DNA of 57,882 nt, from positions 1 through 57,882 of the IMG/VR virus record IMGVR_UViG_3300036885_000119, one strand, 5' to 3'. Below the pieces are notes generated by a model, which did no database searches, was not told the origin of the DNA, and saw nothing but the letters and a program-made list of their open reading frames with translations. Each line of letters begins with the position of its first letter. Positions within the stretch are counted from its first letter, which is position 1. Positions 44,689 through 57,882 of this stretch are shown piece after piece. The stretch is from a virus (lineage: Duplodnaviria; Caudoviricetes). The position numbers were made by a program, and so were the translations under genes.

Positions 44689-44697
44689 GGGGTTTTT

Positions 44698-45069
44698 ATG
44701 GCTGATGAAAATGGCTTCGGTTATTACGTTCAGGCCGTACAACAACAACTCACACAGATAGCAAAAACTCTGGAAACAATCCGCGAGGAAAACTTTACAA
44801 AAGCCGATATGAATGTTTTTAAAGAGGACGTTTGTTTTCCGCGTGGAATACAACAGAAAGAAATCAGCGACAAGGTTGAAGGCCACGAAAAGTTCAAAAT
44901 CCAAATTCTCGCCATTGTTATAGTTATCAGTACCCTTATCGGCGGAGGGGCAATTGTGATAAATTTTTTACAAATGCAAAACATGAAAATAGAGCTTAAA
45001 AATACTTCAGCAGTTGAAACCTCCAAAGCAGTGCAGACTATTGCTACGATAGAGAAGGGAAAACAGTAA
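44698..45069 (+). CDS. single-TM protein (lysis region)
   Basis: ILAIVIVISTLIGGGAIVI TM segment; its stop codon is supplied by the IS end. Confidence 0.6.
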   Translation: MADENGFGYYVQAVQQQLTQIAKTLETIREENFTKADMNVFKEDVCFPRGIQQKEISDKVEGHEKFKIQILAIVIVISTLIGGGAIVINFLQMQNMKIELKNTSAVETSKAVQTIATIEKGKQ

Positions 45070-46346
45070 ATTACCACGGGCACAAGGCCCGTGGCTTTAA
45101 ACAACAGGCATCGAGCAGGTATCGCAGTTATGCAACACCATCTCAATAGTACCCGGTTTTCTGGGGGATTTACTTCTCCCCGTATCTATCGAGTTCAACC
45201 CGATAGACATAGAACGTCCTGCAATATTCTTGCTGGCGTTCCAATCCGCGTCTGCGGTATAACCGCAGCTCGTACATTTGAACAAAAAACCGTCCCTGTT
45301 GGATTTGTCAATATGACCGCATCTATGACACATACGAGAAGTATTCTTGGGAGAAACAACCTCCACAGAAACACCCTTGGAAGCAGCCTTATAAGTAACA
45401 CAAAACGTGAATTTTCCATAAGGCCAACGGTTAATCCTACTTCTAAGAGTTTTACCTTTACTCTTAGAGGCTTCTCGTATGTTAGACAAATCCTCAAGAA
45501 CAATTTTTCTTGCACCAACAGAATCAGCCCAATTTACAAGTCTCTTAGAAGCAACATGCACCGCATGTTCAGTTACGGAAGCCTCATGCCCCGACATTCT
45601 CCGAAGGAGTTGTCGAGACGATCTGGTTCCAACTGCTTGTACTTTGGCTCTGGTTCTTCTGATGTTGGAAAGTTTGTTGTTCAGATGATTAGCTTTATAA
45701 AACAATTTGTTGTTATTGAAGTCAGTTGCAACAAAAAGTCTTTTTATTCCTTGATCAACTCCAATAATAGTTCCAGTAGTAAGTGGTTCTGTAATGTCAA
45801 TTTCATAAGAAAGATTTAAATACCATTGATTTTCTTTAATAAATATTTTAGAATCTTTCCAGTTATCAGGAATTGTTCTGGAATCTTGAAAAGAAATAGG
45901 ATCAGACCAAAGAGTAATATTTTTCTTGGTTCGAGCAAAATCTCTCTTCCAGACAATAGGAATGGATTGCTTTTTGTAAATAGACAGATGCCATTCTTTC
46001 TTTGTCTTTTGAGTTTTATATGCAGCAGAAATGGTTCTGAAAAGAGTACAAGTAAGTTGAGAAGGAAGATTAAATTTCTCACGAACTGTTTTATAGTATG
46101 CTTGTGCAAGTCGGTTAGAATTTATTTCCTTGGTTTCAAAAACAATTTTAGAAAGCCAATTGCAGGCAGAAAGCCAGTGTGGAAGCAACTTATCTGCTTT
46201 ATGCTGACCGGTGAATTTAATTTTCATAGTTCGTATTGTTTTCACAGTTAGTAATATAGTATATTTGTATTGAGAGTAGTTAAACAATTTAACTTGGAGG
46301 ACGCAATTCCTCCACGGGGACAAGCCCCGTGGTTTCCTTGCGTAAA
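45066..46346 (-). mobile_element. IS200/IS605-family tnpB-only element, TAM TGAT
   Basis: Minus-strand left end TTTACGCAAGGAAACCACGGGGCTTGTCCCCGTGGAGGAATTGCG; right end AAAGCCACGGGCCTTGTGCCCGTGGTAATTTAC. Removal restores AAA CAA TCA TGA, an ATGA overlap of the flanking genes. Confidence 0.9.
45097..46245 (-). CDS. tnpB: RNA-guided endonuclease TnpB
   Basis: GVDQG, VLEDL, CHRC...CTSC, ADWNAS; likely start GTG 46245 or ATG 46227. Confidence 0.92.
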   Translation of the reverse strand: MKTIRTMKIKFTGQHKADKLLPHWLSACNWLSKIVFETKEINSNRLAQAYYKTVREKFNLPSQLTCTLFRTISAAYKTQKTKKEWHLSIYKKQSIPIVWKRDFARTKKNITLWSDPISFQDSRTIPDNWKDSKIFIKENQWYLNLSYEIDITEPLTTGTIIGVDQGIKRLFVATDFNNNKLFYKANHLNNKLSNIRRTRAKVQAVGTRSSRQLLRRMSGHEASVTEHAVHVASKRLVNWADSVGARKIVLEDLSNIREASKSKGKTLRSRINRWPYGKFTFCVTYKAASKGVSVEVVSPKNTSRMCHRCGHIDKSNRDGFLFKCTSCGYTADADWNASKNIAGRSMSIGLNSIDTGRSKSPRKPGTIEMVLHNCDTCSMPVV

Positions 46347-46349
46347 ATC

Positions 46350-46850
46350 ATGAAAATAATTCACGGTTTCCGCCTTTCAGCGCCGGAGGTTTCTGGCTAT
46401 CCCGACACGGTAAGAATCTACAATGGAAACACCGGGGATATGCTTCTGTATGAATCTACACGGTTCCGTACCAACCCAAATCCTAATAAACCCAGCACGC
46501 AACAGCCCTGGTATAAGGTATACGCCCAGATAGCACCTACTAACGAGCAAGGCATACCGTGGAAATGTGTCGAGACAATCAAGCGCGGCCGGTGTATTGC
46601 CCTGAATGACGAGGGACCTGTTGCCACGACGGGGCCGGATCCCAATAACGAGGGCAAGGCGTTCGCCACTGCCGTGCTGATCCATTGCGGCTTTTCCGAT
46701 ACATGGCCTGGCTCGATGGCTTGCCAAACGATATTCCCGGCGGATTGGGCCGCATTTATAAGCCATTTCACCCTGGGAGAGTCGGGTATATATATTTTAA
46801 CGGACGAAACAGTAAGCGAGGAAGAACAGACTATTATGGAATCACTTTAA
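46350..46850 (+). CDS. putative endolysin (YkuD/L,D-transpeptidase-like catalytic motif)
   Basis: LIHCGFSDTWPGSMACQ (HxG...SxxC); lysis-module position; true start ATG 46350. Confidence 0.6.
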   Translation: MKIIHGFRLSAPEVSGYPDTVRIYNGNTGDMLLYESTRFRTNPNPNKPSTQQPWYKVYAQIAPTNEQGIPWKCVETIKRGRCIALNDEGPVATTGPDPNNEGKAFATAVLIHCGFSDTWPGSMACQTIFPADWAAFISHFTLGESGIYILTDETVSEEEQTIMESL

Positions 46851-46862
46851 CAAGGAGGACGT

Positions 46863-47096
46863 ATGTCAGGAAATATTGTTGCCGAGGCATTGTTGTTAAT
46901 TGAAAGGCCCATTGCAAAAGCGGTTATTTCGGCCGCTGAGGCCGAACTGAAATCCCTAACGCCGGAGCAAATCAAGGCGGCGGCGGATTGGCTCAATTCC
47001 AAGGTCGGCGGCAACAAGCCGTTCGAGGAACAGGGAATGGAATTTATCATCAAGGGAACAATCGGAATTATTGATTTTCTCGAAACCTTAAAATAA
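46863..47096 (+). CDS. hypothetical protein
   Basis: AGGAGG RBS. Confidence 0.6.
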   Translation: MSGNIVAEALLLIERPIAKAVISAAEAELKSLTPEQIKAAADWLNSKVGGNKPFEEQGMEFIIKGTIGIIDFLETLK

Positions 47097-47105
47097 GGAG
47101 GAAGT

Positions 47106-47363
47106 ATGGGATTGATTCAAGCGGTTGTTGCGTTATGGCAGGGGATGAACGGCCATAAGTTTAACAGTGGGGCGGCGATAACGATTTTATCGTTCGCTTT
47201 CCTAAAGGCATTTACGGCTTTTGGAATGACACCGGATCAAGCTACCAGTGACGCGACATACATTATAGGCGCGGTTGGTGTGGTGATAATGCTGGTAGGA
47301 TATGTGCATCAGTGGTATAAAAGTATTCAAGCAAAAAAGGCGATGACTCCAGCCGCAAAGTAG
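47106..47363 (+). CDS. holin (putative)
   Basis: 85 aa, two TM helices, basic C-terminus; last late gene. Confidence 0.6.
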   Translation: MGLIQAVVALWQGMNGHKFNSGAAITILSFAFLKAFTAFGMTPDQATSDATYIIGAVGVVIMLVGYVHQWYKSIQAKKAMTPAAK

Positions 47364-47382
47364 TTCGGTGGTGAATGAGGAG

Positions 47383-47407
47383 GGGCGGTTTGCTACCGCC
47401 CTTTTTT
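47383..47407 (+). terminator. rho-independent terminator at the convergence of late arm and cassette array
   Basis: GGGCGGT-TTGCT-ACCGCCC-TTTTTT. Confidence 0.8.
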
Positions 47408-47752
47408 ACGTTTCGCAATATCGGAGGCACATGGAGGTTGACCGAAACAACAGTAAATATCCGCGCAGGCCTTAGCTATATTTAATACATCATCCTTAGT
47501 GTACGCCATTTTCGGCTGCGGCTGTGTTGGTGGTTTGTTCGCCACCGCTCCGCGCTTGTTGTAAATGGTTGACCTCCTTTGTTTCGGCGACGCATCTTCC
47601 CAGCCGTCTAAATCAAACCACGTCGCTTCGCCTTTTATCGTGTGACAACCCATTAAATCCTTTGCAACAAAACACTCTCTACGCTCATTGTCGTGCGTTA
47701 TTCCTACGAAACGGAATCCTTCGATGTTGGGGAGGTCTTGTAAATGTTTCAT
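47393..47752 (-). CDS. cassette 16 hypothetical protein (degenerate, chimeric 3' end)
   Basis: ORF follows GTTGCCGG leader; 3' end contains a copy of the cassette-14-type end. Confidence 0.6.
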   Translation of the reverse strand: MKHLQDLPNIEGFRFVGITHDNERRECFVAKDLMGCHTIKGEATWFDLDGWEDASPKQRRSTIYNKRGAVANKPPTQPQPKMAYTKDDVLNIAKACADIYCCFGQPPCASDIAKRKKGR

Positions 47753-47790
47753 TTGCGCCGCCTTTCAATTTTCAAAGCCGGTTTTATTTC

Positions 47791-47934
47791 CGGCAACGTC
47801 TACCGCACTGCGCGAAGTTGCGCTATGGCCACTTCTATATAATTGATAGCCACCTGTAAATCTAATGAGCCACCACGCTCGATTAGAGCAGCAGCGTCTT
47901 TAAGCAAAGCAATTTCGGGCTGTGGTTGTTGGAT
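47791..47934 (-). repeat. attC-like site 15
   Basis: ATCCAAC AACCACAGCCCGAAATTGC...GCAACTTCGCGCAGTGCGGTAGAC GTTGCCG. Confidence 0.75.
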
Positions 47935-48123
47935 GCTCGTTGTCGCGGACTCCATTAATTTTAGTGCGGCCCTATTCATTGGTTTTCCACAATAGCAACA
48001 AAAGTTAAATTCTTTATTCGGTTTGAAGTCGGGGTCACAGTCTGGAAAATAAAGCTCTCTGCCACAGTCCGAAATGAAATCATCTGATCCTTTTTCCATG
48101 CGATGAAGTTTGCATAATTCCAT
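47800..48123 (-). CDS. cassette 15 Cys-rich hypothetical protein
   Basis: MELCK...SDCG...FCCYCGKPM; ATG 48123. Confidence 0.65.
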   Translation of the reverse strand: MELCKLHRMEKGSDDFISDCGRELYFPDCDPDFKPNKEFNFCCYCGKPMNRAALKLMESATTSIQQPQPEIALLKDAAALIERGGSLDLQVAINYIEVAIAQLRAVR

Positions 48124-48162
48124 TTGGCCGCACTCTCTTTCTATGGTTCCGCGACTATGGCA

Positions 48163-48341
48163 TCCCAACGGTTGCCGCACTCGCCCGCCGTGCCGCTATG
48201 ACTGCATATAATGGCCGTGTATCGGACAATCCTTATTGACAACCAATGACACGCACGCACTTACAACCACCTTACCGCGAGTTGTCTTTTGATGCAGGCC
48301 GTTCTCTTTGCAAAGGCATGGCGCGGCTGCGGCTGTTGGTG
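48163..48341 (-). repeat. attC-like site 14
   Basis: CACCAAC AGCCGCAGCCGCGCCATGCC...GGCACGGCGGGCGAGTGCGGCAACC GTTGGGA. Confidence 0.75.
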
Positions 48342-48510
48342 GTTCGTTCGCCACCGCTCCTAATGATTTGAGCGCGTCCCCCATTTTTACGGCCTCAGAA
48401 CTTGACAAAGACATATTTACTTCGATGCCGCCGCTTAAAGTGCTAAGAAAAATAATGCTGCCGCGTTTTTCAATGCTCAACTTGGCGCTTAAACAGTTTA
48501 TAATTTCCAT
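48196..48510 (-). CDS. cassette 14 hypothetical protein
   Basis: ATG 48510 after AAGGAG. Confidence 0.6.
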   Translation of the reverse strand: MEIINCLSAKLSIEKRGSIIFLSTLSGGIEVNMSLSSSEAVKMGDALKSLGAVANEPPTAAAAPCLCKENGLHQKTTRGKVVVSACVSLVVNKDCPIHGHYMQS

Positions 48511-48546
48511 GACGCGCTCCTTATAATTTGGTCGGTGGCGTATGAC

Positions 48547-48659
48547 CACCAACGCGTGCGCACCGCACGAAGTGGCGGTCACACGGGTTTAACATTTATG
48601 GTAAGCTCCACTTTGGGGAGCGTCATAGTGACCGACATTTTGTGCTGCGCTTGTTCGAC
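48547..48659 (-). repeat. attC-like site 13
   Basis: GTCGAAC AAGCGCAGCACAAAATGTCGGTCAC...GTGACCGCCACTTCGTGCGGTGCGCACGC GTTGGTG; a second R''-like copy lies at 48714-48720. Confidence 0.7.
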
Positions 48660-48715
48660 GCTGGTGCGTAGGGTGTGCCATTCGTCGTCAGACAAGCGAT
48701 TAGGTGCGCACGCGT

Positions 48716-48958
48716 TCAACGCAAGAGGCGCGCGGTCTTGCGCCGGGCCGCAGGGCCAGAAAGCATACCGCGAGCTTCCTCTGGTTTAAGAGGTCGGCAA
48801 TCTTGCTGCGTTATCCATCCTCTGCTACTTACATCACCTATAACTCTGTAATCCCCACTATTACGAGTGTCCGGTTTGTCATCTACGGCAATTATGGCAC
48901 CAACATAATTTTTGTACCAATAAAAATCACCAGTACATTTTGTTATTTTTACTAACAT
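48716..48958 (-). CDS. cassette 13 hypothetical protein
   Basis: AGGAGG RBS inside the leader inverted repeat. Confidence 0.6.
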   Translation of the reverse strand: MLVKITKCTGDFYWYKNYVGAIIAVDDKPDTRNSGDYRVIGDVSSRGWITQQDCRPLKPEEARGMLSGPAARRKTARLLR

Positions 48959-49003
48959 TGCCGACCTCCTATAAGTGTCTCGCTCTTAGCCCTGCGGACT
49001 TGC

Positions 49004-49119
49004 GTTGAACGTTCGCCACATGAGCGCCGTTATTTTTTTATAATAGATGAGTCTAAAACCCATTCAATTTTCAATGAGTCATATCGTGCAAAATAATGGC
49101 GACTCTGCGGCTGTTGTGC
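49004..49119 (-). repeat. attC-like site 12
   Basis: GCACAAC AGCCGCAGAGTCGCCATTATTTT...AAAATAACGGCGCTCATGTGGCGAAC GTTCAAC. Confidence 0.75.
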
Positions 49120-49257
49120 GGCTGTTTTCGCCGCTTCCAATATTTTTAACCGCGCATTGACTGTATTATACGCATTTTGGTGCAAGGCACCTGCGACACA
49201 CATTACTACTGCCAACACAATATATCCGATTCTTGCAGCCCAGTCTTTTGCGTACAT
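49030..49257 (-). CDS. cassette 12 small membrane protein
   Basis: One N-terminal TM segment; AGGAGG RBS. Confidence 0.6.
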   Translation of the reverse strand: MYAKDWAARIGYIVLAVVMCVAGALHQNAYNTVNARLKILEAAKTAAQQPQSRHYFARYDSLKIEWVLDSSIIKK

Positions 49258-49292
49258 ATTGTTCCTCCTGCGCGGTTTATAATTTGAGGCGG

Positions 49293-49813
49293 AGTTTGAG
49301 AGTCGAGGTAATCATTTTTGGTTCTCAATGTATCGTTGTATGGTTTCTGCTGAGACATTCCCCGCAGTTGCGGCGAAATAACTTCGAGTCCAAAGAGAGG
49401 GGAGCCTTCTTAAAATTGGATATTTATCTCTTAATTCGTGAGAAGTTATTCCTTTACATTCCTTAACAATTTCGTGAGCCGCAGTAGTGGGCCATCCTCG
49501 AACGAATAAATGAACATGGTCTGGCTTTATTGCCAGTTCGAGAACTTCCCACCCTTTATCTTTACATTTTTGCAGGATAAGTGTTCGACAATCTTTTGCA
49601 ATACTACCAACCAAAACAGGCTTTCTCCTTTTCGGTATCCATATAAGATGAAAAACCATTAGGTGTACGCGGTGTTCGTCTCTTTGATATTGCATACTCA
49701 TGTTTATAATATACCATCCATCTACAAGATTGTCAACAACTTTCTCAAATATCTTTGCGGGCCTAACCACCGGGGTTAAAACCCCGTGGATTGCAGCCCG
49801 TCCCCGCGTTCAA
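49293..49813 (-). mobile_element. IS200/IS605-family tnpA-only (probably truncated) element inserted in the cassette 12 leader
   Basis: One end hairpin CCACGGGGTTTTAACCCCGGTGG; no second hairpin; flanked by GGCGG on both sides; removal restores the cassette leader. Confidence 0.8.
49312..49701 (-). CDS. tnpA: Y1 HUH transposase TnpA
   Basis: HLIWIPKRRK, PDHVHLF (HUH), LWTRSYF, IQRYIENQ (catalytic Tyr); TTGACA-17-TATATT promoter at 49708-49736. Confidence 0.95.
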   Translation of the reverse strand: MSMQYQRDEHRVHLMVFHLIWIPKRRKPVLVGSIAKDCRTLILQKCKDKGWEVLELAIKPDHVHLFVRGWPTTAAHEIVKECKGITSHELRDKYPILRRLPSLWTRSYFAATAGNVSAETIQRYIENQK

Positions 49814-49829
49814 GGCGGCGAAAATGCCG

Positions 49830-49964
49830 TCACAACGTTTACGCAACGGTTGAAGTAACTTGCGCACTGCAATCACCTACCGGAAACGAACATATATTAC
49901 CACTCCTACGATCTTTACAAGGAGAATGACAATCGCAAGTTATTTTAACCTTGCGTTGTTGCAC
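49830..49964 (-). repeat. attC-like site 11
   Basis: GTGCAAC AACGCAAGGTTAAAATAACTTGCG...CGCAAGTTACTTCAACCGTTGCGTAAAC GTTGTGA. Confidence 0.78.
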
Positions 49965-50135
49965 GGGGCGCTTCGCCCGAACTGTTCGGCCCGCTTCCGC
50001 TGCATTCAGGGCGGCACATATTTTATGCGCGCTGTGCTTTACTTTGCAAACGCAGAGGCTAAAAGCTCGCTTCACTTCGTCAACGTACCATGTCTCATTT
50101 ATTCCAGGAATAACCTGATACTTTTTGCCGCCCAT
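49839..50135 (-). CDS. cassette 11 hypothetical protein
   Basis: ATG 50135 after AAGGA; reads through its attC. Confidence 0.6.
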   Translation of the reverse strand: MGGKKYQVIPGINETWYVDEVKRAFSLCVCKVKHSAHKICAALNAAEAGRTVRAKRPVQQRKVKITCDCHSPCKDRRSGNICSFPVGDCSAQVTSTVA

Positions 50136-50162
50136 ATAAAATCCTTTCAAGGGCCGAATTGC

Positions 50163-50193
50163 GTGCAACGTGCGCCGTACTGCACGATGTTTG
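50163..50193 (-). repeat. truncated attC-like site 10 (right arm only)
   Basis: CAAACATCGTGCAGTACGGCGCAC GTTGCAC with no upstream AAC or left arm. Confidence 0.6.
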
Positions 50194-50634
50194 CTAGGTC
50201 GCTTCCTCTGTTTTGGGCGCGACCTGTCTTGTCATTGTTTTTTCTATTCCGTCTTTTTCTTGCCCAAGCAAATCAATTTTTGCTTGAACATCTGCCATCA
50301 ATTTTATTTTGTTTTTGTTTTCTTCAGTTGCTTCGTACAAATTTTCGTATCGTTGTTTCGACCGTCCCTTCTGGTCGTCAACAACCCAGGCGTGCCATCC
50401 GTTCTCGAAAAAAACAGAAGTTACGGTATATGTTTTCCACTGTTCACCGGTTCGATACGAATGATATTTTATAATAACATCGAAACGCTTGAAATCTTTT
50501 TTGTCTAAATCATCTATTCGCTTTCTCACTTTTTCCAATTCTTTGTTTTTGTAATCAGAATCTCCGATGCGAACAGTAAACTCGAAATTAAGTTCAGAAA
50601 ACTTGATTATGAAGCCTTTGTATTCTTCTTGCAT
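50194..50634 (-). CDS. cassette 10 hypothetical protein
   Basis: 146 aa; AAGGAG RBS. Confidence 0.7.
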   Translation of the reverse strand: MQEEYKGFIIKFSELNFEFTVRIGDSDYKNKELEKVRKRIDDLDKKDFKRFDVIIKYHSYRTGEQWKTYTVTSVFFENGWHAWVVDDQKGRSKQRYENLYEATEENKNKIKLMADVQAKIDLLGQEKDGIEKTMTRQVAPKTEEAT

Positions 50635-50682
50635 TTTCTTCTCCTTGTCGCGCCCTATTAATTTCAGAGCGGCCTAAATTGT

Positions 50683-50831
50683 GTACAACGGTTCAGGCAC
50701 CCGCCCGAAGTTGCCGCGCCCACGTTTCGATTGCGCACTGAACAACTGACGGATCGGTTATTGTTGTAACTTTTGCAGCACACTCCATTGACGTCGCTAT
50801 GTCGGCAATTTTGTCGCTGCGGTTGTTGGCT
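50683..50831 (-). repeat. attC-like site 9
   Basis: AGCCAAC AACCGCAGCGACAAAATTGCCG...CGGCAACTTCGGGCGGGTGCCTGAACC GTTGTAC (arms partly mismatched). Confidence 0.65.
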
Positions 50832-51019
50832 GCCGGTACTCCGGGAACTGTAGCGGCCAACTCCGATGCGTCTGGAGGTTGCAATCCCGGCACGTTAGCA
50901 ATGATGTGAGTACGTATAAATCTATAAATTCTGCCAAGGTCGGAAACGGTGCAACGCTCCAAATCTTCGTTAATATCCTCAATAAATTTCGCTTTATAAT
51001 CGAAGTCTGTTTTTTCCAC
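50693..51019 (-). CDS. cassette 9 hypothetical protein
   Basis: GTG start after AGGAGG. Confidence 0.55.
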   Translation of the reverse strand: MEKTDFDYKAKFIEDINEDLERCTVSDLGRIYRFIRTHIIANVPGLQPPDASELAATVPGVPAANNRSDKIADIATSMECAAKVTTITDPSVVQCAIETWARQLRAGA

Positions 51020-51058
51020 TTGTAACCTCCTATTTGTAACGCTCTTGGCCGCTATTGC

Positions 51059-51123
51059 AGCCAACGTGCGCCGTTATGCGCTGGCCGGGGTAGTTTCCGG
51101 CTTGCGTATAGCGGCTGTTGTAA
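51059..51123 (-). repeat. attC-like site 8
   Basis: TTACAAC AGCCGCTATACGCAAGCCGG AAACTACC CCGGCCAGCGCATAACGGCGCAC GTTGGCT. Confidence 0.8.
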
Positions 51124-51370
51124 GCCCGTTGTCAACCGCTCCGCTTTTTCTGGCGGCGCATAACTGCTCTATGAAATTAATGATGTCCTTCAAACAACCA
51201 TCGTTAAATATTGTATCCGAAATTGGATAAAAACAGTATGTTCGCCACGCCGAATACCATTTAATTTCACCTAAAAACCCGTTGGTGCGCTTATTGTGGA
51301 TTGACCAACGGCTGGTCTTCCCGGTATCTCCCAGGCACATAAAGCAGATATACTGGTATTCGGTTCTCAT
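51074..51370 (-). CDS. cassette 8 hypothetical protein
   Basis: MRTEYQYI...LGEIKWYSAWRTYCFYP...IFNDGCLKDI; ATG 51370. Confidence 0.7.
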   Translation of the reverse strand: MRTEYQYICFMCLGDTGKTSRWSIHNKRTNGFLGEIKWYSAWRTYCFYPISDTIFNDGCLKDIINFIEQLCAARKSGAVDNGLTTAAIRKPETTPASA

Positions 51371-51404
51371 GCGCCGCCCTTTCAATGGTCGGTTGACTAA
51401 TGGC

Positions 51405-51489
51405 TTACAACGTTCGCGCAACTCGCATGATGCGCGATATAATAAAATCAACAATCCTCTAATCGCGTTTCATGCTTGCGCTGTTGTTG
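51405..51489 (-). repeat. attC-like site 7
   Basis: CAACAAC AGCGCAAGCATGAAACGCGAT...ATCGCGCATCATGCGAGTTGCGCGAAC GTTGTAA. Confidence 0.8.
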
Positions 51490-51650
51490 GCTGTACAGCG
51501 CACCTCCATAATTTTCTGCCGCGCTTTATCTACTATTGCGTACCAGTAGAAAATTACAAATGCACGTGGGAAGCCTGACCAAAAATGCCATTTGCCGCAA
51601 TGCGGATAATTGCAAAATGACTTACTTTCTTTAATAAAACCCTGCCACAT
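51459..51650 (-). CDS. cassette 7 small protein
   Basis: GAGG RBS; 63 aa. Confidence 0.55.
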   Translation of the reverse strand: MWQGFIKESKSFCNYPHCGKWHFWSGFPRAFVIFYWYAIVDKARQKIMEVRCTANNSASMKRD

Positions 51651-51698
51651 AAAAACCTCTCTTAGCGTGGCCTATAATTTTAAGGTGCGCCGTATTGA

Positions 51699-51778
51699 CT
51701 ACAACGTGTGCCGCTTGTTGACGTTTTAATGTTGCTACGACTGCATTAGGCCCGCACCCCAACAAGCGGCTGTTGGTG
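51699..51778 (-). repeat. attC-like site 6
   Basis: CACCAAC AGCCGCTTGTTG...CAACAAGCGGCACAC GTTGTAG. Confidence 0.75.
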
Positions 51779-51815
51779 GCCTGTAAACCAAGCTACCTTG
51801 ATTTTCTGCCGGGCG

Positions 51816-52172
51816 TTAAAATGGTAACTCCTCAAAATCATCATCGTCGTCGTATTGGTATTTATGGGCGGCGGCGAATTCCGCATCTTCGAGCGCCTTG
51901 ACGGTTCCTTTTTGACGTGGAGTCCATTCATCGGGATTAAGTTTTTTAATTTCTTCAACCTCACTTTTTAAACCTGAAAGCATGCACTGCGCCTGAGTAC
52001 GTTTTGAAGCTTCGGACTTTGCCATTTGGTATTGCCGTACTGCTTCATCTGCAAGGCGCTGTGCGGTCTTTCTTAGCTCGTTCGCCGCCGCCGGAGTAGT
52101 AGCTTCGTTGGAGAGCGATACTTCAAAATGGCAGTAGTCGAACGATAACATTATTTTTACGCTTGCACTCAT
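51816..52172 (-). CDS. cassette 6 hypothetical phage protein
   Basis: ASVKIMLSFDYCHFEVSL...LRKTAQRLADEAVRQYQMAK; acidic tail ending DDFEELPF. Confidence 0.7.
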   Translation of the reverse strand: MSASVKIMLSFDYCHFEVSLSNEATTPAAANELRKTAQRLADEAVRQYQMAKSEASKRTQAQCMLSGLKSEVEEIKKLNPDEWTPRQKGTVKALEDAEFAAAHKYQYDDDDDFEELPF

Positions 52173-52224
52173 TGAATGATCCCTTCTAAGCGCCCGGCCT
52201 ATTATTCCGAGCTTGGTTTATGAA

Positions 52225-52360
52225 CACCAACGGTTCGCTAAACGGCTGATAGTTGCCGCATCCGCTCGATAAACTCTCCAACCATTAACGGCAATTCTCG
52301 CTGAGGGATAGCATCAACCTTGACAACGAGAGCGGCAATTTCAGCCTTTAGCTGTTGTGC
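52225..52360 (-). repeat. attC-like site 5
   Basis: GCACAAC AGCTAAAGGCTGAAATTGCCGC...GCGGCAACTATCAGCCGTTTAGCGAACC GTTGGTG. Confidence 0.8.
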
Positions 52361-52474
52361 GCTGTTGGCAATTTCTACAACACGTTCCAGAGCTTGCCAT
52401 GCGTCCAAAGCCTCTTTAACATTACCAGTGATATATGCTACCCTACCAAGGTCTCTAAATTCACTAATGTCCAT
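52238..52474 (-). CDS. cassette 5 hypothetical protein
   Basis: ATG after AAGGAG; about half of the ORF lies inside its attC. Confidence 0.55.
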   Translation of the reverse strand: MDISEFRDLGRVAYITGNVKEALDAWQALERVVEIANSAQQLKAEIAALVVKVDAIPQRELPLMVGEFIERMRQLSAV

Positions 52475-52513
52475 TGGCAAGCTCCTTTCAAATTAAGAGA
52501 AATTGACAATTGC

Positions 52514-52586
52514 GTACAACGTCCGATGCATGGCGAAGTGCGGTACTCCGCATTTGGGGGTACTCCCCGCCATGCATTTGTTAGGC
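52514..52586 (-). repeat. attC-like site 4
   Basis: GCCTAAC AAATGCATGGCG...CGCCATGCATCGGAC GTTGTAC; the ORF stop TAA lies in the R'' box, as in classical cassettes. Confidence 0.8.
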
Positions 52587-52901
52587 GATGTTCTCCACCG
52601 CTTCCTTAGTGTCTTGCGGCGCGTCTTGATTTTCTTCTGTCCATTCCAACCGATCTGTAACTTGATGGTCAACGTGCCGATATGCTAATCCGTCTATCAA
52701 ATCTTTAGGATAGGGAATGTCCGATGCACGGCTTTTGTGTTGCGCATACGCTTCTGATTCGGTAAACAAATGAGCGTTGTCGAGATTGCACGTATACCCT
52801 GACCGCCCCTTACCCCACCACAACAAACAGTTCCCAACAACCTGACGAGCGTCACGCAAATAATAAAGCCGTTCGGGATTTAATGTCTTTCTTGTTTTCA
52901 T
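52581..52901 (-). CDS. cassette 4 hypothetical phage protein
   Basis: YYLRDARQVVGNCLLWW...GYTCNLDNAHLFT...DIPYP. Confidence 0.7.
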   Translation of the reverse strand: MKTRKTLNPERLYYLRDARQVVGNCLLWWGKGRSGYTCNLDNAHLFTESEAYAQHKSRASDIPYPKDLIDGLAYRHVDHQVTDRLEWTEENQDAPQDTKEAVENIA

Positions 52902-52960
52902 GGTTTTCTTTCTTGGTTTTCGCGCCGCCTATAATATCTGGCTTTGCGGTGGAGAATTTC

Positions 52961-53050
52961 GCCTAACGTGTGCCGCACTCGCCAGATGACGCGGCCTATA
53001 AAAAACTACTCCGCCAGTGCTGCCGCGTTTTCTGGCTGCGGCTGTTGTGC
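52961..53050 (-). repeat. attC-like site 3
   Basis: GCACAAC AGCCGCAGCCAGAAAACGCGGC...GCCGCGTCATCTGGCGAGTGCGGCACAC GTTAGGC. Confidence 0.8.
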
Positions 53051-53359
53051 GATAGTTGCAGCCGACTCCTTATTTTCAGGGGTCGAAATAACTTTGCAAA
53101 GAGGAAACTCCCAATCTCTTAAAAAGGCTCTCTGCAAATGCTGCATACTATCCATCCATTCCAACTTTAAACCAGGAACATAAATTGACTTAGTATAAAG
53201 CATCAGATAAAGCTCGTGATGCTTAACGACCATCATTTTAACACCAAGGTACTCAACAAAAGAACCAACTGGAGCAAAGACTTCCACTGCTTTCAAGCGT
53301 TTGCAGAGAGCCTCCCATTCTTCGTCAACTTTAGGAACCGACTTTTTGAACGGCCACAT
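53006..53359 (-). CDS. cassette 3 hypothetical protein
   Basis: MWPFKK start; stop lies in the attC loop. Confidence 0.65.
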   Translation of the reverse strand: MWPFKKSVPKVDEEWEALCKRLKAVEVFAPVGSFVEYLGVKMMVVKHHELYLMLYTKSIYVPGLKLEWMDSMQHLQRAFLRDWEFPLCKVISTPENKESAATIAQQPQPENAAALAE

Positions 53360-53397
53360 TTCGACCCCCTATAATATTTGATCTCGGCTGCAATTTT

Positions 53398-53537
53398 GCA
53401 CAACGTTTGACAAAGGGCGAAGTTAAACCGGATCGTATACCTTACACTTTGTATTGCAACAAAAACCTTCTTGACGAACAAAAGCACAATCTGAAAGCCG
53501 GGAGCAAGGTTTAATTTCGTCACTTTGTTTGTTGGCT
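53398..53537 (-). repeat. attC-like site 2
   Basis: AGCCAAC AAACAAAGTGACGAAATTAAACC...GGTTTAACTTCGCCCTTTGTCAAAC GTTGTGC. Confidence 0.8.
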
Positions 53538-53692
53538 GCGGCTACTGCCGGAACTGTAGCGGCCAACTCCTCTGAATTGAGCGCGGCGTTGTTTGGCACA
53601 AAACAATTGATAGCTATTACAACGCATCTATTGCACGGAAATTCAGATGAAAAACCGGAAACATATTTACACTTATCGCAAATTTGATTCAT
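53423..53692 (-). CDS. cassette 2 Cys-rich hypothetical protein
   Basis: CDKC...PCNRC; AGGAG RBS. Confidence 0.6.
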   Translation of the reverse strand: MNQICDKCKYVSGFSSEFPCNRCVVIAINCFVPNNAALNSEELAATVPAVAAANKQSDEIKPCSRLSDCAFVRQEGFCCNTKCKVYDPV

Positions 53693-53732
53693 AAGCCGCG
53701 CTCCTATTTATAACGCTCTTGGCCGCTATTGC

Positions 53733-53823
53733 AGCCAACGTTCCCCGCATGTGTGCTGGTTGCGCCTATAAACAAGGAAAATCCGCTAACAACTGCGCAA
53801 CTGGCATACTGCGGGTGTTGGCA
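53733..53823 (-). repeat. attC-like site 1
   Basis: TGCCAAC ACCCGCAGTATGCCAGTTGCGC...GCGCAACCAGCACACATGCGGGGAAC GTTGGCT. Confidence 0.8.
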
Positions 53824-54410
53824 GATGTAAAGCCGGATTCCTTATTTTCTGGTGCGCCCATTTGTATTCCGTCTTTTATTTCGTTCCCGAAAGCATCCCA
53901 TCCGCTACGCTTGCGCCGGGCAAACATTTCCAAGTACGGCCCTGGCATAGACTCGCAAAAGTGATAGATTGACTCCGGCTTTCGGGAATGAAATAGATTT
54001 TCAGAAAGAAGTCCAATAAAGCCATTGGGGGGCGGCTTGGGGCTTCCACGCCTACCGATAAGCACCGGTTCAGTACAGCCACGAATCCAGAAACCGATAC
54101 CATACGGCACCTTAATTTCCAATACACCCCAAAGGTTTGTTGAAACACTCGTAACTTTTACCCACGGAAAGCCGGTAACATAATCAAAGCCCCAAGCCTG
54201 CATTAGCGGCAAACAATCTTCCGCAAGTTTTGGCCATGTCGCCCACATTACCAACACGCAATCAGGATCGGTAAATTCGGACACCGGAAGTTGTTTCATA
54301 TCCGAAAGCGACATGGTAGAATACTGGTTTGCCGCCGCCCCCCGACACCCGGAATTAGAATAACTCCACGGTGGATCAGCTAAAATGACTTTGTATTTAT
54401 GGGCGCACAT
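53766..54410 (-). CDS. cassette 1: MT-A70 family N6-adenine methyltransferase
   Basis: VILADPPW, LVMWATWP, WGFDY, GFWIRGCTE, HSRKP, YLEMFAR...GWDAFGNE. Confidence 0.92.
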   Translation of the reverse strand: MCAHKYKVILADPPWSYSNSGCRGAAANQYSTMSLSDMKQLPVSEFTDPDCVLVMWATWPKLAEDCLPLMQAWGFDYVTGFPWVKVTSVSTNLWGVLEIKVPYGIGFWIRGCTEPVLIGRRGSPKPPPNGFIGLLSENLFHSRKPESIYHFCESMPGPYLEMFARRKRSGWDAFGNEIKDGIQMGAPENKESGFTSANTRSMPVAQLLADFPCL

Positions 54411-54436
54411 ATAATCTCGCTCTCCGGCTTTATTTC

Positions 54437-54455
54437 TGCCAACTAGCTATTAGAT
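54437..54455 (-). promoter_or_regulatory. attI-like simple site at the head of the array
   Basis: ATCTAAT-AGCTA-GTTGGCA: L-like box, 5-nt spacer, GTT core, no upstream hairpin. Confidence 0.65.
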
Positions 54456-54468
54456 GATCTATATATAA

Positions 54469-54678
54469 CTATCTCAATGATTTTACGTATCTTTCGGAAA
54501 GACCTAATTTTATCAATTTTTCCTTTGCTGCTTCTTTTAAAAAATGTCCTGCCGATCCGCTTTTCCTTTTGCAGTTAGGATATTTTACGGAATGTAATCG
54601 GCATACCTTGGAAAATTCCAACGACATTAGCACAGTCACTAATGTCATCGCATCGTATGCTTTTGATTGTTTTACCAT
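54469..54678 (-). CDS. small basic protein directly upstream of the attI-like site (possible RHH-like regulator)
   Basis: 69 aa; SAGHFLKEAAKEKL helix; preceded by a very AT-rich promoter-like tract (54680-54742). Confidence 0.55.
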   Translation of the reverse strand: MVKQSKAYDAMTLVTVLMSLEFSKVCRLHSVKYPNCKRKSGSAGHFLKEAAKEKLIKLGLSERYVKSLR

Positions 54679-54861
54679 TTTAATTACCTATATATAAATA
54701 TAATACTAATAATAATAAAAACCTAATTTATTTTATTTATTTTTACGGCCTCGCGCCCAGCACCCAACAACCCGCCAGCAGTACACCCGCCACTGGCAGC
54801 AGTATGACTATCGCCCAAAACATGAGCGTCCAGGCGATGCGGTCAATGTTGTAGTTCGGTT

Positions 54862-55086
54862 TTACCATGTACCTGATCCTCCAGGACTACGCCGCTCAGT
54901 CTCAATCAACTTTTTAACCTTGGGCGTTGTAGATTCCACATGGTTATGCTCTACCAAATCACTTGTATATAGGCGCGGTTGTGCTTTTTTATCAAATATG
55001 CACCACACAACCATGCCGCACTTTTTACATTTGTCAATATGGCCGTGTCGGTCAAGAAAGGCGTGGATGGTAGGTTCGGAAATCAT
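54862..55086 (-). CDS. small Zn-finger-like hypothetical protein
   Basis: CKKCG...H..H. Confidence 0.55.
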   Translation of the reverse strand: MISEPTIHAFLDRHGHIDKCKKCGMVVWCIFDKKAQPRLYTSDLVEHNHVESTTPKVKKLIETERRSPGGSGTW

Positions 55087-55090
55087 AGCT

Positions 55091-55136
55091 TAGACGGCAG
55101 GGAAACCACACGGCTTTAGCCGCAGTGGATTGTTAC
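55091..55136 (+). mobile_element. solo-hairpin IS200/IS605 remnant (46 bp)
   Basis: TAGACGGCAGGGAAACCACACGGCTTTAGCCGCAGTGGATTGTTAC: left-end-type start, one hairpin, right-end-type TTAC. Confidence 0.7.
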
Positions 55137-55471
55137 AACGTTTTCTGTTTTTTTAATATATGCGTTATCGCTTTTATGGTCTCGTTTTTGCCTTTTTTTA
55201 TTAGAAATTGTTTTGCTAGCTTAAATGTTGCAGCAACAGAAAGTTCGCAAACACCTCCGACATAAGCCCCGCCCGTATAGCATGAGCATAAATAGTTTTG
55301 TTTTGATGCAACTGTTTTTCCTTTTTCATTTATATAAAGTTGCCCGTGTATTCCCCACCAATGACCGTACATTTTAAATTTACGGTAGCACCGGATAGAA
55401 ATAAATTTATTTGTACCAGCAAGGTTTATTTTCATATTACCATCCTTATCTGCGTTGTTTTTACTAGCCAA
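55133..55471 (-). CDS. hypothetical protein
   Basis: ORF in the early operon; true start may be the internal MKINL. Confidence 0.55.
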   Translation of the reverse strand: MASKNNADKDGNMKINLAGTNKFISIRCYRKFKMYGHWWGIHGQLYINEKGKTVASKQNYLCSCYTGGAYVGGVCELSVAATFKLAKQFLIKKGKNETIKAITHILKKQKTL

Positions 55472-55656
55472 TACCGTTTGTAGTTCTGACCCGGTTCAAA
55501 CTCACCGACAATCATTTTGCCCTCTGGAAGCAGCTCGGCGTTGATGCGGCTGTTGATCCTGCGTAACTCAGTAGAGTGGTATAACCGCAACGCCTCTAAT
55601 ACTGTAAGAGATTCACCGCGCAGGTAGTGGGCAAGTATTTCAGATTGTGGATTCAT
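55432..55656 (-). CDS. winged helix-turn-helix protein
   Basis: ILAHYLRGESLTVLEAL...L...SRI...YKRYWL. Confidence 0.7.
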   Translation of the reverse strand: MNPQSEILAHYLRGESLTVLEALRLYHSTELRRINSRINAELLPEGKMIVGEFEPGQNYKRYWLVKTTQIRMVI

Positions 55657-55940
55657 GGTTTCCCCTTGTTAAACAATAGCGACATACAATCTAACTCATC
55701 CCGTAAGGTGTAAATTTTTGAGCCTCTCCACCAAATCTTCAGCGCCAGTTGTCCAGGCCGAAGCTTTTTCTTGCCGCTCTTGATCTCCGCTAGATACGTA
55801 ACGTCGCGAAATCCTATTGCAATATCAGGGGCGCTTTCACCGAGTGCGGATAAATCAAACACTGTTGCCCCCAATTTTTGCAGGCAGTGTACGATAGCTG
55901 TGTGGTTTTCGTCTTTGCGTGAGAAGGCGTAGCTTTTCAT
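55653..55940 (-). CDS. PD-(D/E)xK nuclease (VRR-NUC/resolvase-like)
   Basis: DENH..IV...PDIAIG...LAEIKS...LRPGQ. Confidence 0.75.
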   Translation of the reverse strand: MKSYAFSRKDENHTAIVHCLQKLGATVFDLSALGESAPDIAIGFRDVTYLAEIKSGKKKLRPGQLALKIWWRGSKIYTLRDELDCMSLLFNKGKP

Positions 55941-56111
55941 TCCTCCACCACCTCAATTTTCTCCACATATTTTAACGGCGATTGCCCGCGCTTGTTGTCA
56001 ACCTGTTCCTGTAGCCACTCCGTGATGGTTGGCTTGGCCGCTTTCGGGAAGTCTTTGGGATAGTGTAGTATAATTTTCATCTTGCCCGCCGCTGGTTGAA
56101 GGTTGCGCCTG

Positions 56112-56534
56112 TCATACTATCATCACGCTTTCCGGATCTGGTATAACGCATCCCATTTCTGTTGCTGCCCACCGTTGTATTTTTTCGATGTATTCACAAA
56201 ATTGATCTTTCGTTAACCGCGCCGTACTCATAACCGTATCCGGTAAGCCTTGTCGTTTCACAAGGAGAAATTTTATTTTCAGCGCCTCGTGCATTTCTTC
56301 CGGCGTGTACCCGGTATGCGCTGATAACAACTCTACCACCACTCCGAAATAATATCTGTTCTGTTGAAGGCTTCTAACGGTTCCCTTGTTTTTGTGTCCC
56401 ATTGCCAGGAACATTTCCGAGCCTTCTCTTATCCCATACAGATAAGCATTATAACGGTTTTGTTCCCCTCTATCAAAATGAAACTTACCGTCTATTTTTT
56501 TACCAAGAAATTTTGGGACAAATTTATCTTTCAT
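56112..56534 (-). CDS. NinB-like recombination protein
   Basis: RSLQQNRYYFG...GYTPEEMHEALK...STARL...F.EYIEKI...IPDP. Confidence 0.7.
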   Translation of the reverse strand: MKDKFVPKFLGKKIDGKFHFDRGEQNRYNAYLYGIREGSEMFLAMGHKNKGTVRSLQQNRYYFGVVVELLSAHTGYTPEEMHEALKIKFLLVKRQGLPDTVMSTARLTKDQFCEYIEKIQRWAATEMGCVIPDPESVMIV

Positions 56535-56559
56535 AATTAGAAAGGAAGCAATATTTTAA

Positions 56560-56982
56560 TTAAAATGGCAAACTGGAATCTTCACCCGGCTGTCTCCCGG
56601 CTAAAGGATAAGGATTTGGCTGTTTCAGCGGCAAAACCTTATCCGGGACGCTTCCAGCTTTCGGGGCGCGTACACGGATGCCACCGACAAGTTTTCCGGC
56701 ATAGGATACATTCGGGTCATGGTAGAGCACAATCTTTGTACCTATCCAGTTTGTTTCAATGTTGTCATCGAAACCGGTGATGCGGGCGATAATCTGTCCG
56801 TTCGTGATGTTTAACACCAGCGGCTTGTCCAGTTCCGAAAAGTGAAGAGCCGTTTTCATATCCGGCTCAGCTCCCTGCTGTGCCACATTTTCCTGTGTCA
56901 ATGCAGAAATTGTTACCAGACAACCAACGCCAACATCTTCCTTGCGTAAAAAGTTACTTGTCTTGAGATCGGAAAGATTCAT
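56560..56982 (-). CDS. putative single-stranded DNA-binding protein
   Basis: SNFLRKED, KPLVLNITN, WIGTKIVLY, GIRVR, acidic ...SLPF tail. Confidence 0.6.
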   Translation of the reverse strand: MNLSDLKTSNFLRKEDVGVGCLVTISALTQENVAQQGAEPDMKTALHFSELDKPLVLNITNGQIIARITGFDDNIETNWIGTKIVLYHDPNVSYAGKLVGGIRVRAPKAGSVPDKVLPLKQPNPYPLAGRQPGEDSSLPF

Positions 56983-57002
56983 TTTGTACCTCCTGTTAAA
57001 GT

Positions 57003-57494
57003 TTATTTGATCTGTACGTTTTGCATTTCCACAATACGCGCCGGTAAAATTATACCCTGCTTGAGTGCGGCCTTAATTTCGGTGAGCATGGCAGACCGCT
57101 CCACCTTGACGAAACTTTCCGGCAGGGCGTTAATGTCCTGTACCTCCACGCGCTCGGATTTGCGCCATGATATTTTGCCGCACCCGTATTCCAGCTTTTG
57201 ACCTGGCTGTATGATGTAGCCAAGATAATTTTTGTTTCGCTCCGCATTGTTGCGGTGGACTTTGATACGGGATTTGAGCGCGTCCAGCTCCGCCTCTATC
57301 ATATCGGCAAGGGCAAGTTGGTTTTTATAGTACCGGATTGTGCAGTCTATTTTCTTGTCTCTGTCCATTTCGAGCGCGGTTAATTCCGTGTCAAACTCCG
57401 GTAAAATCTCTCCGTTGTGCTCGGCGGCATATTCCTCGGCCCTGTCCTGCGCCAATTGATATGCCGCGTCAATACTGAAAAGAGAAATGTTCAT
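57003..57494 (-). CDS. Siphovirus Gp157-family protein
   Basis: Coiled coil, KISWRKSERVEV.D...LP...IKAALKQG...ARIVE.QNVQIK. Confidence 0.8.
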   Translation of the reverse strand: MNISLFSIDAAYQLAQDRAEEYAAEHNGEILPEFDTELTALEMDRDKKIDCTIRYYKNQLALADMIEAELDALKSRIKVHRNNAERNKNYLGYIIQPGQKLEYGCGKISWRKSERVEVQDINALPESFVKVERSAMLTEIKAALKQGIILPARIVEMQNVQIK

Positions 57495-57498
57495 AAAT

Positions 57499-57755: not shown

Positions 57756-57828
57756 TGTGGTGGCTTGTGCAAACAAAACACCCATCTTTATTCACAAAAA
57801 AATCTAATTTTTTAGGAGGTCTACCCAT
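57756..57828 (-). pseudogene. N-terminal remnant of an HNH-type endonuclease cut by the adjacent element
   Basis: GAGG RBS; MGRPPKKLDFFVNKDGCFVCTSHH resembles phage HNH N-termini. Confidence 0.5.
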
Positions 57829-57882
57829 TGTTCACAATAACCTCGATTTACAGTTTGCCGCCTGACATACGCCGGATTCAAC

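Follow-up and report, generated by a model that had tools for sequence, protein, structure and literature searches.

We analysed the whole of the IMG/VR virus record IMGVR_UViG_3300036885_000119 (Caudoviricetes; 57,882 bp, with a completeness estimate of 74%), referred to below as the window, which belongs to a peat phage, and found that an array of integron-type gene cassettes on its minus strand carries a two-part terminal inverted repeat that is particular to each cassette. The array runs from 54443 down to about 47526 and consists of 16 short cassettes, each with GTT at its start and AAC at its end, separated by attC-like hairpins of 51-165 nt, except after cassette 10, where 9 nt are left. 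The first ~21 nt of a cassette pair with its last ~21 nt, and a second, GC-rich arm of 8-12 nt lies ~35 nt inward from each end. The data show that this design exists, that the pairing is specific for the two ends of one cassette, that compensatory changes preserve it, and that whole cassettes are the units that move. A preliminary description of the window had placed the array at 47935-54443; it is there, and it runs on past 47935 to the limit given above. The array has the makeup of a CALIN (cluster of attC sites lacking integron integrases; at least two attC sites in a row with no integrase nearby), as at least 14 sites lie within 7 kb and the tyrosine recombinase/integrase profile PF00589 had no match anywhere in the contig.

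Specificity was measured with RNAduplex by pairing the 5' end (62 nt) of each cassette with every 3' end (80 nt), which gave 16 own and 240 mismatched pairs. The mean energy was -48.1 kcal/mol for own pairs and -28.7 kcal/mol (standard deviation 6.0) for mismatched pairs, and for 13 of the 16 cassettes the own partner ranked first in both directions. With the 7-nt R box taken out, own pairs still averaged -38.2 kcal/mol against -24.0 kcal/mol for mismatched pairs. Positions 1-12 (GTTNNNNGCAAT / ACAGCNNNNAAC) are conserved across cassettes, and the cassette-specific parts are positions 5-7 and 13-21 together with the inner arm. Of the 16 cassettes, 13 have a perfect inner arm, 8-12 nt long. Nine of these have it 33-39 nt from the GTT and 35-36 nt from the AAC; the outliers are cassettes 2, 11 and 13, in which insertions lengthen the 3' side, and cassette 12, in which an insertion sequence (IS) interrupts the 5' side. 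By eye, cassettes 7 and 9 have an inner arm with a single A.C mismatch. Cassette 3 folded as plus-strand DNA gave a panhandle with z = -5.4 (0 of 100 shuffles as good), and cassette 14 gave one with z = -5.0 (0 of 200 shuffles as good). As a separate observation, cassettes 2 and 9 have their outer arms in common.

The preliminary description had proposed that the arms differ between cassettes, stay complementary within each and thus covary. The end pairs it gave for cassettes 1, 3 and 14 are present as written on the minus strand, and covariation is borne out by the own and mismatched energies and by compensatory changes between homologues (see below). The outcome that it named as fatal, namely that mismatched ends would pair equally well, did not occur, because mismatched ends pair much worse. 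Two of its details need correction: the added pairing amounts to ~23 bp, within ~45 nt per side, rather than ~45 bp, and the internal loop is not asymmetric, since both spacers are ~14 nt and the loop of ~14 x 14 nt is symmetric in length.

Pattern scans for the attC core found related arrays in viral contigs, in two contigs of bacterial metagenome-assembled genomes (MAGs) and in metagenome contigs. One array-bearing viral contig is a complete 213-kb genome with terminal repeats, and related contigs hold up to ~24 cassettes. Sites were called with two position weight matrices built from 82 sites; a regular-expression finder, with a background of ~1 match per 2-3 kb, was dropped. This gave 440 candidate cassettes, or 409 unique ones after removal of 31 duplicates, on 109 contigs (10 viral, 2 MAG and 97 metagenome), and the set of 409 retains false and hybrid calls. 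The box letters are G1 in 408, T2 in 407 and T3 in all 409 cassettes, with C, A and A opposite, and position 4 is G or A in 406; the boxes conform to the inverse core RYYYAAC and the core GTTRRRY of attC sites. Counted inward from the ends, positions 1-9 are paired and positions 10-11 form a fixed mismatch (A.A in 189 and A.C in 231 of 241 well-paired cassettes). Positions 12-21 pair at a frequency of ~0.70, against ~0.27 with shuffled partners, across the 409 cassettes. Past position 21 there is no pairing signal until the inner arm. The 10-bp outer stem is perfect in 173 of 409 cassettes, and an inner arm scoring at least 8 was found in 269 of 409; when the partners were shuffled, it was found in 11 of 409. 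The inner arm was detected in 77 of the 122 candidate cassettes of the first 10 contigs, and of these 77 it starts 33-37 nt from the GTT in 55 and ends 33-37 nt from the AAC in 59. The 5' and 3' spacers each have a modal length of 14 nt, and (at ~22-35 nt from GTT or AAC) they resemble each other as direct, not inverted, repeats (GAAATTATAG, AGAAAATTAAGGA). We also observed that in 113 of the 409 cassettes the 5' spacer, which is unpaired in the predicted loop, has TATAAT as its non-coding-strand sequence.

These counts bear on whether the arms could be merely parts of one repeated element, pairing by chance or through shared ancestry. Being conserved, positions 1-4 and 8-12 pair whichever two cassettes are combined. 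The variable positions, however, pair with their own partner only: at least 7 of 9 variable positions are paired between own ends in 168 of 271 cases, against 3 of 271 junctions when the 3' arm of one cassette is set against the 5' arm of the next. The 241 good cassettes contain 135 distinct R-arm pairs, and the shuffled-partner controls refute this explanation, to which we give practically no chance of being correct. Miniature inverted-repeat transposable elements (MITEs) and foldback elements likewise have a short unit between inverted repeats that is able to fold back. MITE repeats are identical in all copies and serve as transposase sites, whereas the arms here vary from unit to unit; the 135 distinct pairs in 241 cassettes, and breakpoints that fall at direct GTT sites and not at repeat tips, rule out an element of this kind.

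The first 9-12 nt of the pairing are a known phenomenon, and in this family they form a conserved 12-nt R arm. In most integron cassettes self-pairing continues past the 7-nt boxes "to a total of 9-11 consecutive complementary nt", which is the length in print for ordinary cassettes (Bouvier et al. 2009). As an ordinary-cassette control we used 10 cassettes of a Vibrio anguillarum chromosomal-integron fragment in phage Va_90-11-286_p16, a phage record named in Qi et al. 2023 (PMC9892861). Their own-end pairing was complete (100%) over positions 1-8, dropped to 80% at position 9 and to 50-60% over positions 10-11, and was at background thereafter, so that it stops at 8-11 nt. None of the 10 has an inner arm, the longest own complement being 5-7 nt against a cross mean of 5.9. 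The preliminary description had claimed a repeat far longer than the known R'/R'' match. This stands for the 10-bp stem, the loop and the inner stem and falls for the first 9-12 nt, which were already known (Bouvier et al. 2009), and the Vibrio cassettes, by lacking the two-part design, leave the claim intact where ordinary cassettes with that design would have undone it. Full-text searches of the literature, with subscription journals and supplements out of reach, found no account of cassette ends that pair over more than 9-11 nt, nor of the 10-bp stem, the conserved loop or the inner stem, and term searches within PMC3053210, bioRxiv 10.64898/2026.03.17.712381 and PMC11641012 found nothing relevant.

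In other respects the cassettes resemble canonical integron cassettes (those of the Vibrio cholerae repeat, VCR, and of class 1). Both are small, mostly single-gene units with a hairpin site after each gene; both have RYYYAAC...GTTRRRY boxes, an inner L stem, unpaired spacers and exchange at G|TT; and in both the R' and R'' boxes of one free cassette are complementary. Canonical cassettes stop at 9-11 nt (Bouvier et al. 2009), whereas pairing here extends over 21 nt and a second stem of 8-12 bp. The phage CALINs of Qi et al. 2023 (PMC9892861) share the integrase-less attC clusters and the methyltransferase cassettes, and phage attC sites were recombined by IntI1 in that study; set against those CALINs, the array described here has 16 cassettes and its relatives have up to ~24.

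To examine whether the pairing is maintained, we took 29 pairs of homologous cassettes, 68-99.9% identical across 85% or more of their length, and with our own scripts followed the base pairs intact in one member to the other. In the other member, 534 base pairs were unchanged and 10 fell in gaps. Double changes that keep Watson-Crick pairing numbered 32 (13 in the R box, 9 in the outer stem and 10 in the inner arm), and the pair was broken by 3 double changes and 15 one-sided changes (5 to A.C, 1 to G.T and 9 other). Since 32 changes are compensated and 18 are disruptive, the pairing is maintained. The substitution rate was 0.073 in stems compared with 0.143 in cassette interiors, and by our arithmetic one-sided changes are about ten-fold rarer than the interior rate predicts. 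We conclude that own-end pairing has been kept intact by evolution.

These changes also speak to the idea that the arms are a footprint of cassette birth or copying with no present function, having been made complementary at creation or re-homogenised by hairpin repair. Several features are consistent with such an origin: many stems are perfect (173 of 409 outer stems, 13 of 16 inner arms in the window) although the arms of different cassettes are unrelated in sequence, the spacers resemble two direct copies of one motif, as expected from a duplication, open reading frames (ORFs) cross the 3' arm as though gene ends had been overwritten, and arm pairs are common to cassettes with different interiors (cassettes 2 and 9, the G010 pair and the joints in cassettes 1, 4 and 9 described below). 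A passive relic would decay, however, whereas here compensated changes prevail and one-sided changes lie ten-fold below prediction, and hairpin repair itself requires the fold to form. Because of the compensatory changes and the halved substitution rate in stems, a pure decaying footprint is disfavoured. We therefore regard a functionless footprint as unlikely, and it is similarly unlikely that the constant geometry is the trace of a creation mechanism.

Natural variants indicate how the cassettes move. The unit of exchange is a gene with its downstream attC, with the crossover in the R' box at G|TT. Cassette 3 recurs, with 97.3% identity over 449 nt, in the viral contig G008, where the match extends from 5 nt before the GTT of cassette 3 to 7 nt past the next GTT, and the downstream attC is identical (identity 1.0), as compared with an identity of 0.36 for the upstream attC. 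Among contigs of peat DNA runs, those of X10 and X13 include a form lacking exactly cassette 14 and its attC, a skip of 384 nt (48553 minus 48169) with a 6-nt ambiguity at CGTTGG. A second form, in runs X18 and X13, is without exactly cassettes 1 and 2, a skip of 1039 nt (54443 minus 53404) with a 4-nt ambiguity. The breakpoints of these deletions sit in GTT boxes. The variant contigs are forms unlike the window, though some of these runs may be its source. Because the variants lose exact cassettes with breakpoints in GTT, we conclude that the cassettes are mobile units. The array head (54440-54450, minus strand) reads ...CTA followed by GTTGGCAG and has no attC upstream; it acts as an insertion point, since in the X18 and X13 variant cassette 3 follows it immediately (joint 53400 to 54440). 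We also noted the same arm pairs around different or much diverged interiors, namely in cassettes 2 and 9 and in the G010 pair 20728/46563, and contigs of runs X10 and X13 have joints within cassettes 1, 4 and 9 at which one arm pair likewise goes with differing interiors. Either the arms outlast their cargo in conservation or they are exchanged as modules.

A potential model for the function of the pairing is that the helix serves as a clamp, closing the recombination site into which the free cassette folds as a single strand. This is the reading that we prefer, and we place it a little short of an even chance. The array consists of integrase-less integron-type cassettes in a phage genome; each unit, a gene with its downstream attC-like hairpin, is exchanged at G|TT. 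Once the two ends of one single-stranded cassette come together, in an excised circle or in a loop drawn out of the array, the attC stem would continue outward through the conserved 12-nt R arm with its two fixed mismatches, the 10-bp specific stem, the motif-bearing loop of ~14 x 14 nt and the GC-rich stem of 8-12 bp. The clamp would hold the R arm double-stranded only in the free cassette, which would therefore be a strong substrate for re-insertion, and a site in the array, lying between two different cassettes, would fold weakly. The recombinase would be supplied by the host. When 13 cassettes (all but 10, 12 and 16) were circularised in silico and folded, the mean bottom-strand free energy was -51.6 kcal/mol in the circle and -35.4 kcal/mol in array context, with 30 and 11 flank-flank pairs, respectively. 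The attC hairpin is thus lengthened in the simulated circle, as the preliminary description had expected.

The pairing could instead act on the integrated array. In that case a cassette panhandle on single-stranded DNA would draw the neighbouring attC sites close to each other and so favour excision of a single cassette, or it would compete with attC folding and thereby quiet the array. The pairing would be the same as in the clamp, whole cassettes do fold as panhandles, and natural losses of one and of two cassettes occur. Against this, the panhandle removes from both flanking attC sites the R boxes that canonical recombination needs (Bouvier et al. 2009), and we judge a structure acting in the array to be improbable.

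The clamp would act on DNA, and three observations favour a role at the DNA level. The inner arm lies at a fixed distance from GTT and AAC, whereas its distance to the start codon ranges from -7 to +64 nt. In 234 of 252 cassettes the non-coding strand gives the stabler R arm and outer stem; the mean difference is 3.7 kcal/mol and arises largely from the fixed mismatch, which is T.T/T.G on that strand in place of A.A/A.C. With a crossover at the GTT box, the non-coding strand is also the one that would be cleaved (Bouvier et al. 2009). Finally, cassette L331, which carries an antisense ORF of 134 codons, has kept perfect arms at 35/35 nt.

The main competing explanation is an mRNA panhandle, in which the 5' leader pairs with the 3' end and thereby closes the message, and hides the ribosome-binding region (at the inner arm), protects the RNA or marks it for processing, or does both; ribosomes reading through the 3' arm would reopen the fold. 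In agreement with it, GGAG or the start codon often lies within the inner arm, and the coding-sense RNA of cassette 3 folds into the same panhandle with z = -6.2. In 174 of 238 cassettes the longest ORF continues across the 3' arms and enters the attC. Contigs of RNA libraries (runs X18 and X19) cover parts of the array, but they may represent DNA carry-over and are mute on transcript ends and strand. The variable distance between arm and start codon speaks against a leader structure, as do the arms of the reversed-gene cassette. The conserved A.A and A.C stand in the RNA-sense outer arm, which is the weaker strand in the 234 of 252 cassettes counted above. Stops in the ORF frame across the arms are not significantly avoided (28 of 96 compared with 76 of 192, p = 0.09). 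Sigma-70-like promoters (12 against 11.6 expected) and terminator-like sequences (9 against 8.4 expected) are not enriched. With these results, an mRNA panhandle is possible but rather doubtful.

Two known systems offer comparisons at the RNA level. RNase III stems bracket 16S rRNA as gene-enclosing processing stems; such stems share with the cassettes a long-range 5'-3' pairing around a gene and an internal loop, and differ from them in that the outer arm here is weaker in the RNA sense. T4-type PeSL (promoter early stem-loop) shuffling cassettes have an early promoter and a stem-loop between units. The promoter and terminator counts just given do not fit cassettes of this type.

The ORFs at the cassette ends merit description in their own right. 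In window cassettes 1, 3, 5 and 14, as in the 174 of 238 overall, the longest ORF crosses the 3' inner arm, the spacer, the outer arm and the R'' box. Such read-through ORFs enter in varying frames and typically end 30-45 nt within the attC, and the arms are therefore usually coding at the 3' end. We also observed a class of mini-cassettes of ~150-170 nt from GTT to AAC, whose arms make up most of their length; 88 of the 409 cassettes belong to it, including 52354-52520 in the window. Some mini-cassettes are followed by a conserved attC of ~120 nt (of the AGCTAAAGG... type) with an ORF passing through.

Several points weigh against the clamp. The circle and the folded strand are in silico constructs, and about one third of the candidate cassettes, some of which are false or hybrid calls, are without one or both arms. 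The 29 homologous pairs overlap in clusters and are not independent, and replacement of a whole arm pair would mimic compensation and may inflate the counts; in the closest pair, cassette 3 of the window and of G008, two changes in the arms are uncompensated. The outcome of the strand test is due mostly to the conserved mismatches at positions 10-11. Mismatch types in the variable stems favour neither strand: the outer stem has 15 G.T against 21 A.C, inner arms with one mismatch have 4 against 3, and conserved spacer letters dominate the helix-flank counts. The inner-arm region is slightly stabler on the coding strand (166 against 81 cassettes, 0.9 kcal/mol), as an mRNA panhandle would have it; this may come from purine-rich flanks or from RNA pairing. 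The frequent overlap of the inner arm with a Shine-Dalgarno sequence (GGAG) or start codon is a further such point. Lastly, the rules of IntI1 and VchIntIA may not apply to these sites, since the bulges and the longer spacer sit opposite the canonical arm, as follows.

The attC-like site consists of NNNNAAC, a 1-nt spacer, a 6-bp stem, a bulge, 6 bp, a variable tip, the mirror half, a 4-nt spacer and GTTNNNN, and it thereby has the L''/L' stem, unpaired spacers and variable terminal structure of an attC. Among 458 sites, 272 have spacers of 1 and 4 nt, and 451 have the longer spacer on the L'-R' side. The L'-R' arm bears the first asymmetric bulge in 369 of the 458, the R''-L'' arm bears it in 39, and 50 have no such bulge; window examples with the bulge and the longer spacer on the L'-R' arm are at 53740-53816 and 52968-53043. 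In canonical attC (VCR), the R''-L'' arm carries the extrahelical bases through which the bottom strand is selected (Bouvier et al. 2009; PMC2727003), and when these bases are moved, strand choice and crossover shift to the R'' box (PMC2727003). Here the bulge is on the opposite arm, yet the crossovers are in the GTT box.

No complete integron, with an integrase bearing the IntI-specific insertion beside the array, was found. Five related viral records, including the complete 213-kb genome, had no match to PF00589, and three further viral records had none to TIGR02249. Three bacterial or metagenome contigs have an Xer-like recombinase (274-288 residues) directly upstream of the array and on the array strand: L283 (MAG; 249-1115), L422 (metagenome; 552-1376) and L405 (metagenome; 5643-6470), with the first cassette 25-115 nt past the stop codon. 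The L283 enzyme scores 149 bits against a TIGR02249 cut-off of 265 and is without the ~30 residues of the IntI insertion, and the L422 and L405 enzymes are 33-35% identical to it, as judged by tblastn and alignment only. A true IntI is encoded by MAG G007 on a separate 1.8-kb contig. None of the viral contigs of this family has such a gene, and a scan of viral contigs with the three array-adjacent enzymes returned only 12 distant relatives (21-34% identity). The agent is therefore likely to be a host enzyme acting in trans. As a side observation, Virus Rctr41k (KX853513.1, L443) encodes at 4680-5678 an "integrase-like" protein with 42.7% identity to the true integron integrase of the MAG; no array of the window type follows this IntI-like gene.

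We tentatively suggest, as a possibility on the doubtful side, that these arrays belong to a separate integron-like branch, spread over peat and sediment bacteria (with one MAG labelled Chitinivibrionales) and their phages. The branch would combine an Xer-like recombinase without the IntI insertion, an inverted attC asymmetry and a "whole-junction" hairpin substrate formed only by own ends. If this is true, the branch has a built-in switch that tells free from integrated cassettes, selected via the cassette-specific stems.

The individual cassettes are all on the minus strand and are given here from AAC to GTT, the higher coordinate being the start of the GTT. Cassette 1 (53817-54443) encodes an MT-A70 DNA methyltransferase; its outer arms are the first and last ~21 nt, and its 10-nt inner arms are at 54408-54399 and 53861-53852. 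Cassette 2 (53531-53739) has 9-nt inner arms (53703-53695 / 53587-53579) and an insertion in the 3' outer arm. Cassette 3 (53044-53404), the one shared with G008, has inner arms of 11 nt (53368-53358 / 53089-53079), and cassette 4 (52580-52967) has inner arms of 8 nt (52928-52921 / 52623-52616). Cassette 5 (52354-52520) is the 167-nt mini-cassette, with 10-nt inner arms (52484-52475 / 52399-52390) and an ORF that continues through a 122-nt attC. The stop codon precedes the 3' inner arm in cassette 6 (51772-52231; 8 nt, 52198-52191 / 51815-51808). Cassette 7 (51486-51705) has the imperfect inner arm noted above, of 7 nt at ~51671-51665 / 51524-51518, and cassette 8 (51117-51411) has a 10-nt one at 51378-51369 / 51161-51152. 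The inner arm of cassette 9 (50825-51065), 11 nt with one A.C, is at ~51030-51020 / 50880-50870, and a small hairpin is inserted in the 3' outer arm.

Cassette 10 (50179-50689; inner arms 50655-50647 / 50223-50215, 9 nt) has lost nearly all of its attC, the 9 nt mentioned above leading to the next GTT. Cassette 11 (49958-50169) has 8-nt inner arms (50133-50126 / 50016-50009) and an insertion in the 3' outer arm. Cassette 12 (49113-49836) has 9-nt inner arms (49277-49269 / 49156-49148), and an IS200/IS605-type insertion at 49283-49808 (minus strand) separates its 5' outer arm from the spacer. This insertion carries a Y1 transposase ORF at 49312-49770 (PF01797, E 4.5e-35) and lies outside the repeat design. 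An IS-free form of this site, with the joint 49282 to 49809, occurs in contigs of the peat DNA runs X10 and X13. The longest inner arms, 12 nt at 48968-48957 / 48801-48790, are in cassette 13 (48714-49010), which has an insertion in its 3' outer arm. Cassette 14 (48335-48553), the one missing with its attC in natural variants, has 9-nt inner arms at 48519-48511 / 48378-48370, and cassette 15 (47928-48169) has 9-nt ones at 48134-48126 / 47971-47963. Cassette 16 (47526-47797) has no inner arm, its 3' outer arm is like that of cassette 14, and it is probably a hybrid. We noted that cassettes 10 and 11 are fused (50170-50215) after the loss of the attC, and that the cassette 14-like 3' arm of cassette 16 falls in the region 47526-47600; the oddities of cassettes 10 and 16 look like scars of illegitimate or off-register recombination.

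Outside the array, the window encodes a terminase, an NrS-1-type primase-polymerase fused to a DnaB-like helicase and two TnpB-like proteins, with structural genes on the plus strand. The two TnpB/Cas12f-like ORFs (OrfB_IS605 and TNB domains) are at 485-1624 (plus) and 45097-46323 (minus), one of them immediately downstream of the array. Four alike short hairpins of the form GG..ACCAC..GG.TTTA.CC..GTGG lie at ~49760-49800, ~55100-55140, ~57505-57545 and ~57720-57750, one of them at the end of the IS; they may be end or guide structures of the IS605 family. A Pfam search of cassettes 2-16 and of five small ORFs upstream found no domain, the sole match being a sub-threshold one to DUF2586. The array had no blastn match among 50,697 phage records. 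A 14-mer scan of viral contigs gave 119 single matches, mostly chance, and was set aside. An Rfam scan of 44000-57882 found nothing significant, and Rfam itself is without an attC family.

Understanding of integron recombination rests on a few proteobacterial sites, in which only the attC hairpin of ~60-140 nt counts. Selection on pairing well beyond the attC indicates that in this family the whole cassette takes part in the fold. If the fold acts in recombination, it would give a simple physical reason for a difference between free and integrated cassettes. If it acts in RNA, it would represent a new form of expression self-control for promoterless cassettes. The finding also bears on how cassettes arise, because the arms overlap both ends of the gene. 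Further, it shows that phages carry large, active cassette arrays, in which cassettes are gained and lost at the level of the population.

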